64,000 nt of DNA. It comes from a phage. Positions 1,506 through 7,020 of the stretch are shown here, one piece after another. Every line of letters begins with the position of its first letter. Position 1 is the stretch's first letter. A program made the position numbers and the translations under genes. A model generated the notes under the pieces. It was not told where the DNA came from, did no database searches, and saw only the letters and a list, made by a program, of their open reading frames with translations. The DNA lies in the sequence record PZ295659.1, one strand, 5' to 3'.

Positions 1506-2165
1506 TTAACCTCGATTCATAAATGCATTAAATATTTGGTCATCAACAGAAATTTCTAATTCGACTTCAATTGTTTCAGCCTTTTCTTCAGGTGGTAATT
1601 CGTATCCACACACTACAATTTTTTCATCGATATCAAAATACACAGAAGCAATACGATTAATGTTATTTTCGGTTAAGTCTAAATCAACATCAACATCTTT
1701 TTGACCTACACTTAAAGGATAACTAATACGGGTTATTTTATTATCTTTAACAAAGAGACCACCAACATACTCTGTACTACGTTTGAAGTTTACACGTTTC
1801 CGAAATGAAAGATATGATGCATCTTTACCGTGAGCTCGGCTCATAGGACATAATGAATAGCTAGAATAAGAGATGTCAAATCCTACACCTTCAATATGAG
1901 CCAACGCGTCATGATTAAACCAATTATAATCATATGCCAAATCCATTATATTGTAATATGTGAAAGGCACCGGATTAACATCATACGTTGTACCTTTAAA
2001 ATCTGCCCAGGCAACGATTTCGTTATCTTTAACAATTACAAAAATTACACCAATATGATATCCGTTATTATTTTCATTCGGCGTTATATTATAACATTGT
2101 GCATTAGGAAATTTACCATATTTAAACGGCGCATTTTTGTGCATATAATAAATCATATTATTCAC
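1506..2165 (-). CDS. hypothetical protein
   Basis: 219-aa ORF, no recognisable motifs. Confidence 0.55.
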   Translation of the reverse strand: MNNMIYYMHKNAPFKYGKFPNAQCYNITPNENNNGYHIGVIFVIVKDNEIVAWADFKGTTYDVNPVPFTYYNIMDLAYDYNWFNHDALAHIEGVGFDISYSSYSLCPMSRAHGKDASYLSFRKRVNFKRSTEYVGGLFVKDNKITRISYPLSVGQKDVDVDLDLTENNINRIASVYFDIDEKIVVCGYELPPEEKAETIEVELEISVDDQIFNAFMNRG

Positions 2166-3193: not shown

Positions 3194-3210
3194 TTCAATT
3201 TCCTCTGTAG

Positions 3211-3251
3211 TTGATAGAAAGATAGTAACACAGTATGCGATGCTTGTAAAC
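3211..3251 (-). promoter_or_regulatory. early promoter (GTTTAC -35 type) for lipoprotein gene
   Basis: plus gtaaac at 3246-3251, stem-loop-like gatagaaagatagtaacac, GAGGA SD and ATG at 3193. Confidence 0.45.
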
Positions 3252-3253
3252 AG

Positions 3254-3466
3254 CTATTTTAAACTTTTGCGAAATTTGCGTTTTTCTTGACGAATCTGTC
3301 GTTTAGTCGGACGTACAGCAAATTTAACGAAGTCCACTTTACCGTGTGGAAACTTTTCAGATGCTTCACAGTCCATCATTAGTTCCCATCCTTCCAGAAT
3401 AAGAGCTTTCCATTGTGTAGTTGATGCAAATTCGTATGTTGATGGTTTAAACACAGTTGAATACAT
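3254..3466 (-). CDS. hypothetical small basic protein (VRPTKRQ motif family)
   Basis: ORF 3254..3511 in track; start placed at internal ATG 3466 with GAGGA SD; C-terminus FAVRPTKRQIRQEKRKFRKSLK; paralog at 31249..31446. Confidence 0.5.
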   Translation of the reverse strand: MYSTVFKPSTYEFASTTQWKALILEGWELMMDCEASEKFPHGKVDFVKFAVRPTKRQIRQEKRKFRKSLK

Positions 3467-3467
3467 A

Positions 3468-3659
3468 TTATCCTCTGAAATCAGCTTCGAAAACTTTCTC
3501 GTCATTAACAAACGCTTTAACTAATGCGTTGTTCACTTCAGCAAGTTGTACCGCAACCCACTCGATTTCTTCGCTATCACCTGATAACATGATATCTTTA
3601 GTGAACATCTCGCCGCTTTTAAACCAACCGATAAAAGTAACTTTAGTTAATTTGCTCAT
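3468..3659 (-). CDS. dmd: Dmd, antitoxin against host RnlA/LsoA RNases
   Basis: MSKLTKVTFIGWFKSGEMFTKD...YAEVNNALVKAFVNDEKV matches T4 Dmd (gene 61.5); ATG overlaps upstream stop (ATGA). Confidence 0.8.
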   Translation of the reverse strand: MSKLTKVTFIGWFKSGEMFTKDIMLSGDSEEIEWVAVQLAEVNNALVKAFVNDEKVFEADFRG

Positions 3660-3973
3660 ATTTCCTCGCAAAATGCCCATTCAGCGTGATAAACTGTAGC
3701 ACCTTTAGTATTATTCATTTGAACTACGTCTACCGGAGAAATTACTCGATAGAGACGTGGTTCACCTCCATAAGAGCGTGCTGCTCGTCCTGCATAAATC
3801 TTTGCTAAACCGATATCTTCAGTAAAGAATACACGATCCAAGTTTTTCTTACGTCCAGTTTCAGACAGAACTCCTGTTTCTTCAGGAGGACAAAGTATAT
3901 TTTCGATGTTAGCTGAACTACTTGAACCGTGATAAAAAATCTTAAATTCTGCTTTACAATCGATGGTTTTCAT
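3656..3973 (-). CDS. hypothetical protein with HGS...Y...E motif
   Basis: 105-aa ORF between 41 and dmd; FYHGSSSS, YAGRAARSY, YHAEW motifs noted. Confidence 0.5.
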   Translation of the reverse strand: MKTIDCKAEFKIFYHGSSSSANIENILCPPEETGVLSETGRKKNLDRVFFTEDIGLAKIYAGRAARSYGGEPRLYRVISPVDVVQMNNTKGATVYHAEWAFCEEI

Positions 3974-4039
3974 TTTGTTCTCCTCTTGGTTGGTGTAAGT
4001 ACATCATATCATGCCTAGAGGAAGATGTAAACCCCGAAA

Positions 4040-4061
4040 GGAGACCGAAGTCTCCTTTTTA
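4040..4061. terminator. GC hairpin immediately 3' of gene 41 stop (orientation ambiguous)
   Basis: ggagac-cgaa-gtctcc at 4040-4055; T-run follows on plus strand, weaker U-tract on minus strand. Confidence 0.35.
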
Positions 4062-5504
4062 TTAAAATTTTAACTCATTGGCTAAGCTATCTAGGTCAGC
4101 ACGTGTTGTTTTGGCTTTACCTACGCGTTCCGTACGATTCATCTCTGCCTGACGCATCTGAGCACCTGCGTTTTCATTTACTGTGTTAGGTGTGTTCATG
4201 CCTTCTTGCTCAATCTCAACCCATTTCTGGTTGCCTTTACGTACACCCATCAGGAATTTATTCCACTTATTCTTATCACCGTATCGTGATTTGATTTGTT
4301 TGATAAGTTGTTGTTCAGCTTGTGCAAGTTCTTCGGTTTCAATTACGGCCAACATGAAATCTGCCGTTGCTGGTAAACCTGCTGATTCTGCAATATCGCT
4401 CATGTTCATATCCGAAGCATCCCATGCTGCACGTCCTACTTGAGCTGCAGTCCATAGAACTGTTTCAGATTCTACTGCTAATGCACGAAGTTCTTCTGCG
4501 ATAGCTTTAACTAATGTGTAGCTATTTTCAGTGTAAACTCTGATACGACAAGACCCACAAATACCTAAGTAATCAACCATGATTACAGATGGCACAAAGT
4601 TCTTCTTGAGTTTCAATTCATTAAGCAATGCACGGAATGTATTAGCATTAGCTCCACCAGTAGGATACTGTTTAACTACTAAACGTCCTAATGTGGATTT
4701 TGAACGCCATTTTTCCATCTTGGCTTTATATTCAGCATAAGATACGTTACCATCATCGATATCATCAAGTGATACGTCAAGCATGTTTGCATCTATACGC
4801 TTAGCACAAACTTCTTCAGCCATTTCCATGGAAATATAAAGAACATTATGACCTGTTTGAAGATAATCTGCAGCAAGTGAACAAAGGCCTAAAGATTTAC
4901 CAACGTTAACACCGGCCATTAAAACATTCAGTGTACCGGTTTCAGCACCACCTTTAGTGATTTTATTCAGAATGTTTAATTTGAACGGGACCTTACGTGC
5001 TTTGTTCAGATAAGAAAGCCAGCGGGCTTCATAGTCTTCCATCCAGTCGTGTCCAACATAACTATCAAACGAAATTGAAAGTGCTTGACGCATAATATCA
5101 GGAATAGCTCCTACGTCAGGCATTTTCTTGTTACGTTGTTCTGGAGGTAGTTCAGCATTAGACTGAATCTCAATGATTTTGGATGTAGCATTATACATCG
5201 CTTTTTGCTGGACATATTTCTCAGTTTCTTTAACCAACCATTCGTGGTCTTCAGGAGTATCAGCCAATTTTTCAATTAGGTCTGAAGTTCCTTTATATTC
5301 GGCTTCAGTTAAAGAACTGTTATCTAAAGCCACCTTTAATGCGTTGATAGACGGCATTGCATTATATTCGTTAACGTGGCTCTTTATAATTTTAAAGACG
5401 TTTTTTGCCGGTCCACGCTCAAAATACTCAGAATCCATATAAGGCCAAACCTTAGAAAAATAAGCCTGGTCATATACTAGATGAGACAAAATAATTTCTA
5501 CCAC
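4062..5504 (-). CDS. 41: replicative DNA helicase gp41 (DnaB-like)
   Basis: 480 aa, near-colinear with T4 gp41 (MVEIILSHL...Walker A GVNVGKS...). Confidence 0.95.
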   Translation of the reverse strand: MVEIILSHLVYDQAYFSKVWPYMDSEYFERGPAKNVFKIIKSHVNEYNAMPSINALKVALDNSSLTEAEYKGTSDLIEKLADTPEDHEWLVKETEKYVQQKAMYNATSKIIEIQSNAELPPEQRNKKMPDVGAIPDIMRQALSISFDSYVGHDWMEDYEARWLSYLNKARKVPFKLNILNKITKGGAETGTLNVLMAGVNVGKSLGLCSLAADYLQTGHNVLYISMEMAEEVCAKRIDANMLDVSLDDIDDGNVSYAEYKAKMEKWRSKSTLGRLVVKQYPTGGANANTFRALLNELKLKKNFVPSVIMVDYLGICGSCRIRVYTENSYTLVKAIAEELRALAVESETVLWTAAQVGRAAWDASDMNMSDIAESAGLPATADFMLAVIETEELAQAEQQLIKQIKSRYGDKNKWNKFLMGVRKGNQKWVEIEQEGMNTPNTVNENAGAQMRQAEMNRTERVGKAKTTRADLDSLANELKF

Positions 5505-5513
5505 GATAACTCC

Positions 5514-5855
5514 TTAAAAGAATTTAAATTTTTTCTTGGTCCGTTCATTAAAAGCTTGTTGTACTTGCATTGTAACACATTTTTCAACATGTGGTGCAAG
5601 TTCTGCTTTTCTGTCCTGGTCAAGAACTGCAAAGTCCATTACGATTTTACCATCAACCCAGTCTAGTTTTGTAATATAGACTATATGATGAGAACCATCT
5701 TCAAGCGTAATCAGAATCTCTTGAATGACATTTTCCATTGCTGAACGGATAATTTTAAGAGATTCATTAAACACTCGTTCTTTGCGAATGTCTTCCCCTT
5801 CCGAAGAAGGGGATTCATCAACGATTTCTAGATTTAAATCATCGAGATTATTCAT
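5514..5855 (-). CDS. 40: gp40 head vertex assembly chaperone
   Basis: Syntenic small ORF between uvsX and 41; track ORF starts at a TTG, ATG at 5855 preferred. Confidence 0.6.
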   Translation of the reverse strand: MNNLDDLNLEIVDESPSSEGEDIRKERVFNESLKIIRSAMENVIQEILITLEDGSHHIVYITKLDWVDGKIVMDFAVLDQDRKAELAPHVEKCVTMQVQQAFNERTKKKFKFF

Positions 5856-7020
5856 CGAAATCTTCCATTTCGTCAAGGTCGTTTTCTATATCTGCTGCAG
5901 ACGGAGCATCAGAAGTTTTAACCGGAACTTTAGTTGTTGCTTTGCAATTAATAAGGTCGTTAACAGCGTCATCAACTTCTTTAATAGAAGAGATAGCACC
6001 TAGTTTATATTTAGTTTCAATTGCATCTCGGAAAGGTTTGTGTTTAAACAACGGTCCCCAGAATTCTACACAATCAGTAGCTTTAGCACGCCATGATTTT
6101 TCTTCACGAATCATTTCACCTGTTTCTTCGTCAAGGAATTCACGAGCATACCAACCAGCTTTAGGCTTAACTACAAAACCAATTTCAGTTGCCATTTCTA
6201 ACAAGCCACTGAATGGGTCAATACCACCATCAAAATTAACTGTGATCGGAAAAGTAGATTTCTCTTTAACCGTACGAGATTTTTCTGCTTTCAACGTGAA
6301 GTCATAACCGGTCAATTCTGTACCTTCTTTAACCTGACGTTTAGAGATAAAGAATACAGTGTTAGCAGAGTAAAGAATACCTGTACCACCACCCATAATC
6401 TCTTTAGGATACAATCCGCCAATTTCCATTGCGGTATGGTTAATTGCAACACACGGAATATCTTTAATAGTCAGATACGGGGTCACAATGCGGAACAGAG
6501 ATTTAAGTGCCTTAGCACGAGACATATCACCTACAACTTTCTCGTTCAATGCATCTTCGGTTTCTTTCTTAGATGCAGTATTACCGATTGAATCGATAAA
6601 GATAATAACTTTATCACCGCGTTCAATCGCGTCAAGCTGATTAGTCATATCAACTTTAAGTTGTTCGACAGATTGAATCGGAGTATGAACTACACGGTCT
6701 AAATCAACACCCATTGAACGAAAATAAGATTCTGAAGCACCAAATTCTGAATCATAGAACAAACAAATTGCATCTTTATATTTCTTCATATATGCTGCAA
6801 CCATGGTCAGACCAAACAACGTTTTAAAGTGTTTAGAAGGAGCAGCAAAAATAGTTAAGCCTGATTGCAACCCGGCATTCAGTGCACCACCTAATGCAAT
6901 ATTCAACATCGGAATACGAGTAGGGACTTCATCACGATTATTAAACAGCTTAGACTTAGTCAAGTCTGCAGTCATTTTAGAAGTAGAAGCTTTAATCAGA
7001 CGAGATTTTAAATCAGACAT
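5848..7020 (-). CDS. uvsX: UvsX RecA-like recombinase
   Basis: 390 aa, MSDLKSRLIKASTSK... RecA fold motifs, colinear with T4 UvsX. Confidence 0.95.
   Translation of the reverse strand: MSDLKSRLIKASTSKMTADLTKSKLFNNRDEVPTRIPMLNIALGGALNAGLQSGLTIFAAPSKHFKTLFGLTMVAAYMKKYKDAICLFYDSEFGASESYFRSMGVDLDRVVHTPIQSVEQLKVDMTNQLDAIERGDKVIIFIDSIGNTASKKETEDALNEKVVGDMSRAKALKSLFRIVTPYLTIKDIPCVAINHTAMEIGGLYPKEIMGGGTGILYSANTVFFISKRQVKEGTELTGYDFTLKAEKSRTVKEKSTFPITVNFDGGIDPFSGLLEMATEIGFVVKPKAGWYAREFLDEETGEMIREEKSWRAKATDCVEFWGPLFKHKPFRDAIETKYKLGAISSIKEVDDAVNDLINCKATTKVPVKTSDAPSAADIENDLDEMEDFDE

Follow-up and report, generated by a model that had tools for sequence, protein, structure and literature searches.

What is the function of the small protein that some T4-type phages encode directly upstream of the antitoxin-like gene dmd, and are the two gene products partners? 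The question is raised by a 64,000 nt stretch of phage DNA (sequence record PZ295659.1; hereafter the window, whose positions are used for all coordinates), which represents an RB69-like T4-type phage (Mosigvirus) and includes an open reading frame (ORF) of 105 amino acids (aa; 3656..3973, stop codon included) overlapping the start of the 63 aa dmd gene (3468..3659). Every gene and signal at this locus is found on the minus strand, and bases 3200-4100 are 98% identical to the phages TH58, HX01 and RB69. The reading favoured here, to which a probability of roughly 0.6 is attached, is that the ORF encodes an early-expressed, minimal ADP-ribosyltransferase (ART) dependent on nicotinamide adenine dinucleotide (NAD+), which, without involving Dmd, would modify a conserved host molecule in the service of host takeover or counter-defence.

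Among lytic phages the T4-like group is the best studied, and the classic viral ARTs are its Alt, ModA and ModB proteins; the 105 aa protein and its relatives, here termed mini-ART, make up a fourth, unrelated ART family. Approximately 100 residues long, mini-ART occurs in over 600 sequenced phages, whose hosts span many Gammaproteobacteria; in the window its gene heads an operon of proven inhibitors of host toxin-antitoxin defences. The assignment of an ART fold and the adjacency of the gene to dmd were already reached computationally in 2022, and to this extent are not conceptually new; what is new is the affinity to Arr and KptA, a correction of the proposed active-site triad, a connection to polyvalent proteins and evidence against an obligate pairing with Dmd. 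If its target were identified, a further mechanism of host takeover or counter-defence would come to light and the minimal functional core of an ART would be defined; the protein merits a bench test, and will not surprise a specialist.

Fold and putative active site of the 105 aa protein

The 105 aa ORF is a true gene, not a chance ORF, and is under strong purifying selection. It starts MKTIDCKAEFKIFYHGSSSS, is a homologue of RB69ORF040c and matches phrog_2110, of unknown function, over its full length (E-value 3.7e-59). Homologues were detected by tblastn in 610 phage records, a search of 5.8 billion proteins gave 140 cluster representatives at 58-97% identity, and the ratio of nonsynonymous to synonymous substitution rates (dN/dS) is 0.07-0.12 in comparisons with relatives at 82-69% nucleotide identity. 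It is on the basis of the phrog_2110 match, these records and the low dN/dS, along with a ribosome-binding site and promoter-like site of its own, that the ORF is regarded as real.

Homologues in HX01, Konradin, Apostate, VAC13, Phynn and 501E54-1 are labelled 'putative ADP-ribosyl transferase' in GenBank or RefSeq. The RefSeq record of HX01 (NC_018855.1) also names the gene 61.4/tifA homologue 'DNA polymerase' and imm.1 'iduronate sulfatase' and, as product names in this record are unreliable, its 'ADP-ribosyl transferase' label needed an independent test. An AlphaFold2 model of the 105 aa protein, built from a 32-sequence alignment (predicted local distance difference test score, pLDDT, 89.4; predicted template modelling score, pTM, 0.79), consists of six strands and one long helix, and has the split beta-sheet core fold of ARTs. 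In fold comparisons the model scored 8.5 with the Tpt1/KptA RNA 2'-phosphotransferase, 8.1 with the Arr rifampin ART, 6.3 with AcrF11, 5.7 with diphtheria toxin and 5.2 with both DarT1 and PARP15. Likewise, Foldseek placed Arr first (TMq 0.61) and KptA second among PDB structures, and the BFVD viral structure set yielded a match to a phage 'rifampin ADP-ribosyl transferase' (38% identity; E-value 6e-9).

Profile comparisons point in the same direction. An exhaustive profile search of 1.84 billion representatives returned 227 relatives of the protein, and a profile of 36 diverse family members matches the Arr structures 2hw2 and 9iaf by sequence (E-value 1.2e-5). When the family was aligned by hhalign with Arr-2, represented by a sequence identical at 149 of 150 positions to PDB chain 9iba_A, the probability was 95.6% and the E-value 1e-8, over residues 6-84 only. 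In several distant relatives the same domain is matched by PF12120 (Arr-ms), with 16-29 bits relative to a cut-off of 25. These comparisons and the predicted structure support the 105 aa protein as a minimal ART-fold protein homologous to Arr; it is a relative of Arr and KptA, and a member of neither family. The first-pass annotation had put forward the ART fold as a speculation, for which structure prediction with a fold search was suggested as the check and a fold unrelated to ART domains as the disproof; once that check was run, the call stood.

The alternative that the protein is no ART, but a small phage protein of some other fold whose HGS only happens to look like the ART motif, could draw on the lack of a direct Pfam, NCBIfam or PDB sequence match; in the PDB, neither the single sequence nor a close-family profile found one, and only the wider 36-member profile reached Arr. 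However, the profile match to Arr and the hhalign result, alongside the structural comparisons, essentially refute this explanation, which is barely credible.

The similarities to Arr (PF12120; PDB 2HW2, 9IAF, 9IBA) comprise the 'YHGT' motif of strand 1, the E-x-G-R loop and the arrangement of strand 2 and the following helix, and both proteins are unusually small for ARTs. They differ in length, at 105 aa against 143-150 aa, and the 105 aa protein is below any Pfam threshold and gives no sign of a rifamycin substrate. The key residues of Arr are reportedly H19, Y49 and D84; the second of these is replaced by F49 in the phage protein, and the region around the third is unaligned, the alignment ending just before E-D-D-P-N of Arr. 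With the NAD+-binding lobe of Tpt1/KptA, the protein shares an H-G-T type motif on strand 1, the absence of a catalytic Glu and a hydrophobic residue on strand 5; R63, in the helix after strand 2, presumably resembles the essential Arg of this lobe. By contrast, the N-terminal winged-helix RNA-binding lobe of KptA, with its catalytic Arg-His, is wholly absent, the strand 2 His is a Phe, and there is no match to KptA at the sequence level.

Residue conservation was judged on 32 close and 36 distant family members. The FYHGSSSS motif picked out in the first-pass annotation was found as residues 13-20; within it, H15 and G16 are invariant in both sets, position 17 is either S or T, and H15 aligns with Arr H19. 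Across the wide family E38, A57, Y60, A61 and G70 are also invariant, and R41, F49 and T51 are at least 90% conserved. The conserved features are thereby distributed along the chain: H15-G16-S17 in strand 1, the loop E38-x-G-R41-K-K43-N44, V48-F49-F-T51 in strand 2, Y60 and R63 in the helix that follows, G69-G70, G91, and F101 and E103. R63 is kept in the T4-like subfamily and is sometimes K in the wider family. E38, G40 and R41 align with E40, G42 and R43 of Arr, such that an E-x-G-R loop motif is common to both families.

At the strand 2 position of the nicotinamide pocket occupied by Y49 in Arr, the family has F49 of the VFFT sequence, an aromatic residue that is neither Tyr nor His. The invariant Y60 follows 11 residues later, the same spacing as between the nicotinamide-stacking tyrosines of diphtheria toxin (Y54 and Y65) and of PARP1 (Y896 and Y907). 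A tyrosine-rich middle, also described in the first-pass annotation, is a modest feature: Y60, Y68 and Y75 are there, with Y95 further on, and only Y60 is invariant. Similarly, a late glutamate had been noted; E98, E103 and E104 are all present, and only E103 is conserved, solely in the T4-like clade. Most of the distant members read A-K-[VI]-[VI]-K at this strand 6 position, and no conserved acid was found in strand 5 (residues 94-97, VYHA), where the catalytic Glu, Asp or Gln of the H-Y-[EDQ] and R-S-E clades is lacking. The proposed H-Y-E signature is only partly right: its histidine fits Arr H19, the strand 2 position holds a Phe and the late Glu is conserved in one clade. The pattern, as read from the aligned residues, appears to be H, aromatic, hydrophobic, closer to the KptA-type 'H-H-h' than to H-Y-E.

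E103 was considered as a family-wide catalytic Glu and rejected, as it is missing from most of the distant members and its codon forms part of the dmd Shine-Dalgarno sequence. The latter, GAGGAA, is made up of the ART codons GAG GAA for E103 and E104 (window 3656-3665), and hence part of the C-terminal conservation may be a nucleotide-level constraint in Dmd-linked phages.

The lack of a family-wide acid at the canonical catalytic position, along with the very small size of the protein, could indicate a catalytically dead ART-fold binder, serving as a sponge for NAD+, ADP-ribose (ADPr) or an ADPr-derived signal, or as a decoy for a host protein; phage sponges for NAD-derived signals, Tad1 and Tad2, do exist. 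However, the residues of the NAD pocket are conserved (H-G-[ST], F49 and Y60, joined in the T4-like subfamily by R63), activity in Arr and KptA does not depend on a catalytic Glu, and mini-ART has been reused beside other enzymes in polyvalent proteins, all of which makes a dead binder quite improbable.

Relationship with Dmd

The first-pass annotation had identified Dmd and its start-stop coupling to the 105 aa gene, and both were confirmed. The 63 aa protein, starting MSKL, matches Pfam PF17587 with 72.7 bits against a cut-off of 27 (E-value 3.1e-20) and phrog_2102 (E-value 1.3e-32), and is an antitoxin-like inhibitor of the RnlA and LsoA toxins; its gene occupies the position of the annotated dmd of RB69 and is followed by the DUF7279/61.4 gene, so that synteny is kept. 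The dmd ATG overlaps the TGA of the ART gene as ATGA (3659-3656).

A predicted 'p0068 family' ART, paired with Dmd in phages of Escherichia, Shigella and Salmonella, has been proposed to form a type II toxin-antitoxin system in which Dmd is the antitoxin (PMC9503650, section 3.7.1; Iyer, Burroughs, Anantharaman and Aravind 2022), and Klebsiella phages were described as having a Mod-like ART in the same position (PMC9503650). That pair, matched by description and not by accession, is almost certainly the gene pair of the window. The published analysis placed the ART in the H-Y-[EDQ] clade with Dmd as its antitoxin, whereas here its nearest relatives are Arr and KptA, and the ART and Dmd are distributed independently.

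A phage-borne type II system, in which the ART would be the toxin, perhaps acting on RNA, and Dmd the cognate antitoxin, would explain several features of the locus in addition to having been predicted before. The two genes are adjacent and, to judge from their overlap and the single promoter-like site upstream of both, co-transcribed and translationally coupled, the ATGA overlap and toxin-first order resemble those of rnlAB and lsoAB, and the adjacency of ART and dmd is kept across Mosigvirus and Dhakavirus. However, the two genes neither co-occur nor move jointly across genomes. The 610 ART records derive from phages of Escherichia (216), Klebsiella (116), Acinetobacter (68), Aeromonas (62), Enterobacter (29), Vibrio (14) and other hosts, and those of Klebsiella, Acinetobacter, Aeromonas and Vibrio have no Dmd detectable by tblastn, which found Dmd in 798 records, essentially all of them Escherichia, Shigella, Yersinia, Salmonella or Citrobacter phages. 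Conversely, Dmd is widespread in T4-type phages that lack the ART; in Tequatrovirus, gene 41 is directly followed by dmd. A Dmd-like ORF was present within 4 kb at 10 of 69 ART loci from IMG/VR, always immediately downstream of the ART, leaving 59 without one.

What follows the ART elsewhere is similarly varied. Three loci (L016, L017 and L023) have ARTs 77-85% identical to that of the window in the same slot after gene 41, and other genes next to them: a 46 aa Cys-rich ORF, and ORFs of 96 aa and 117 aa with signal peptide-like N-termini. A non-coding stretch of 150-215 nt follows the ART at Acinetobacter-type loci, and in Vibrio phage 501E54-1 the genes next to the ART are convergent. In KP27 (Klebsiella), Konradin (Acinetobacter) and avDM1 (Aeromonas) the ART is found in other neighbourhoods, where the short downstream ORFs are not Dmd; the possibility that these are divergent forms of Dmd was rejected, as they have no Pfam Dmd signal and their sequences are hydrophobic or unrelated. 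Furthermore, mini-ART is also fused into injected polyvalent proteins that lack an antitoxin-like partner, the phages are strictly lytic, and 4 nt overlaps are common between unrelated neighbouring genes in ART-bearing phage genomes. Given this distribution, the ART and Dmd are taken to be independent modules, which are neighbours by chance in Mosigvirus and Dhakavirus; an obligate toxin-antitoxin pairing is not supported, Dmd is unlikely to be an antitoxin for the phage ART as a general rule, and the toxin-antitoxin explanation of this locus is distinctly doubtful, although the two products may interact functionally in particular lineages.

In the IMG/VR T4-like contigs L015 (4319-4740) and L019 (4295-4700) the ART is followed by two Dmd-like ORFs in tandem, with jackhmmer E-values of about 1e-36 and about 1e-15, suggesting a dmd duplication or paralogue in some lineages. 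In avDM1 (L006 2584-3051) the ART is followed by a 79 aa ORF and then by a protein with an HD_4 domain, a RelA/SpoT-type HD hydrolase (Pfam E-value 1.6e-8), and the Aeromonas locus could consequently represent a nucleotide-signalling context.

Polyvalent relatives and proposed role

Many distant relatives of the 105 aa protein are, like it, stand-alone proteins of approximately 100 aa, and others are domains inside proteins of 870-3924 aa. Pfam scans of 17 of these large relatives identified as fusion partners ART-PolyVal, NUDIX, 2H/Acb1-like phosphoesterase, GNAT, Toprim, PcfJ, LPD23, lambda-type portal, minor-tail and CHAP domains; ART-PolyVal occurs in six of the 17, usually within ~200 residues of the mini-ART domain. 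Such architectures are those of 'polyvalent' proteins, which phages and conjugative elements deliver into the recipient cell (PMC5512222; Iyer et al. 2017). For these relatives, the embedding implies delivery into the host early in infection, and the fusions support a host-directed effector role.

Relatives of the 105 aa protein hence sit in the same giant virion-associated proteins as ART-PolyVal (PF18760), which is nonetheless a separate ART family: domains of the 105 aa type have no PF18760 match, and the 105 aa protein, as far as can be told, is stand-alone and expressed from an early promoter instead of being packaged. Among the large relatives, P0167 (954 aa) combines a lambda-type portal, mini-ART and a 2H/Acb1-like phosphoesterase, P0158 (1955 aa) combines ART-PolyVal, mini-ART and NUDIX, and P0142 (3924 aa) combines a minor-tail (tape measure-like) domain with mini-ART; these three may be injected toolkits for processing NAD and ADPr.

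In the window, an early-type sigma-70 promoter-like site, (G)TTTACA and TATGAT separated by 17 nt and with an upstream TG, is located at 4003..4031; it matches the consensus at 10 of 12 positions, the best in the region. The 105 aa gene follows, its ATG preceded by the Shine-Dalgarno sequence GAGGAG (3980..3985) at a distance of 6 nt, and lies between this site and dmd, making it the first cistron of the unit. The consensus scan found no promoter between the ART gene and dmd, and the single promoter-like site is upstream of both. Past the dmd stop by 1 nt begins the last cistron, the gene 61.4/tifA homologue (3254..3466; 70 aa), identified by DUF7279 (Pfam E-value 5e-20) and by the gp61.4 annotation of RB69. 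At the T4 dmd-tifA locus an early promoter lies upstream of dmd (PMC9391042).

According to the favoured reading, the 105 aa protein would be a minimal, probably active, NAD+-using ART from the Arr/KptA-like branch, to judge from its sequence affinities and modelled fold. Encoded by the first cistron of an early unit consisting of promoter, ART, dmd and tifA, it would appear in the cell in the opening minutes of infection, and would transfer ADPr onto a conserved molecule of the host, as an effector of host takeover or counter-defence. The acceptor may be a phosphate on a nucleic acid or nucleotide, as it is for KptA, or else a core protein of the host. The ART would work independently of Dmd, with the ATGA junction reflecting the compact gene packing of the hyperplastic region of T4-type phages. 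Identity of 60-70% is kept across phages of Escherichia, Klebsiella, Acinetobacter, Aeromonas, Proteus and Vibrio, which is unusually high for an accessory gene, and therefore the target is likely to be a conserved cellular component and not a strain-specific immune protein.

There is a weak lean towards a phosphate-bearing nucleic acid or nucleotide as acceptor, because of the KptA-like configuration, the conserved basic G-R-K-K-N loop with R63, and the occurrence of mini-ART in one polypeptide with 2H or NUDIX domains. In the tRNA splicing pathway of KptA, 2H enzymes process the ADPr cyclic-phosphate product. Taken further, the 105 aa protein might be the smallest autonomous ART known, equivalent to the NAD lobe of KptA without the RNA-binding one, and might ADP-ribosylate a phosphate either at the ends of RNA or DNA, from host or phage, or on a nucleotide used in immune signalling; it would thereby add an enzymatic counter-defence against RNA-targeting toxins to the anti-RNase operon of dmd and tifA, and the 2H and NUDIX fusions would reflect the processing of ADPr cyclic-phosphate by-products. 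This extended scheme is speculative and, taken as a whole, unlikely.

The same fusions, to processors of ADPr derivatives and cyclic nucleotides, would also suit an Arr-like enzyme directed at small molecules or nucleotides, which would modify or use up a compound of low molecular weight, for example a toxin resembling an antibiotic, a second messenger of an immune response or NAD+ itself, instead of a macromolecule. Arr, the closest relative by sequence, is itself a small-molecule ART, and the H-H-h clade with the KptA-type enzymes handles RNA repair, small molecules and soluble ADPr derivatives (PMC9503650). By contrast, the C-terminal region of Arr and the stretch around its D84 either have no counterpart or cannot be aligned, lytic phages of enteric bacteria show no sign of selection of the kind that rifamycins exert, and the basic G-R-K-K-N loop with R63 is more suggestive of a phosphate-rich or macromolecular ligand. 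A small-molecule substrate is consequently rather unlikely, if worth bearing in mind.

The best analogy for the favoured reading may be AcrF11 (PDB 6KYF), a small phage-encoded anti-CRISPR mono-ADP-ribosyltransferase by which an enzyme of the host defence is inactivated. AcrF11 modifies a specific residue of Cas8f. It has no sequence similarity to the 105 aa protein, and the strong conservation of the latter's family in phages of different hosts points to a target that is more universal. Alt, ModA and ModB of T4 resemble the favoured reading in being ARTs with which T4-like phages modify proteins or RNA of the host at the onset of infection or shortly thereafter; by contrast, they belong to the R-S-E clade, are ~200-680 aa long, have another active-site configuration and have no sequence relationship to the 105 aa protein.

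A number of points weigh against the reading of the protein as an active, host-directed ART independent of Dmd. The protein itself has no match in Pfam (at an E-value ≤ 1), NCBIfam or PADLOC. The C-terminal third of Arr, approximately 45 residues, is absent from it, and it contains no obvious substrate-binding module. The family as a whole has no conserved acidic residue at the position of the catalytic Glu of H-Y-E and R-S-E ARTs and the region of Arr D84 is unaligned, meaning that catalysis is not assured. The published prediction for the ART-dmd pair is a toxin-antitoxin system (PMC9503650), and, as Dmd is short and evolves fast, highly divergent Dmd-like partners may have escaped tblastn and jackhmmer. 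Finally, a literature search covering RB69ORF040c, Arr-like phage ARTs and ARTs in T4-like defence contexts found no experimental work on any member of the family; the ADP-ribosyl and dmd passages of the HIDEN-SEQ preprint, on T4 and Bas phages, likewise do not mention the 105 aa gene.

Surroundings of the early unit

Upstream of the early unit are uvsX (7020..5848), gene 40 (5876..5514) and the helicase gene 41 (5504..4062). Just past the gene 41 stop, and directly upstream of the promoter-like site, is a stem-loop (4039..4054) of GGAGAC and GTCTCC around TTCG, which is identical in RB69; with the promoter, it presumably resembles the 'promoter-early stem-loop' cassette of T4-type phages.

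Downstream, the minus strand between 1506 and 3466 contains a run of counter-defence and superinfection exclusion genes that starts from dmd and continues through tifA (61.4), imm.1, imm and sp to gene 61.2 (2165..1506), which encodes a homologue of the anti-DarT protein AdfA. Experiments have demonstrated the counter-defence activity of Dmd against RnlA and LsoA, of TifA against ToxN and of AdfA (61.2) against DarT, and the TifA of RB69 was itself tested (PMC9391042). The stretch downstream of the ART amounts to an anti-defence island flanked by genes 41 and 61.

The window also differs from most of its relatives in lacking RB69ORF041c, a 375 nt gene that in RB69, HX01 and most other relatives is situated between gene 41 and the ART gene (window 3974-4061). 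Alignment with RB69 (L002 2240-2800) indicates a clean deletion of ~430 nt, the ends of which lie within two similar cassettes of ribosome-binding site and start codon, AAGAGGAAAACATTATGAATATG and CTGGAGAACAAAATGAAAACC. In RB69 the ART gene has a second promoter-like site of its own, GTTTACTTCTCC...TATTAT, whereas in the window the ART gene is instead joined to the upstream hairpin and promoter. Phage TH58 also aligns with the window as one colinear piece, with no ~430 nt gap.

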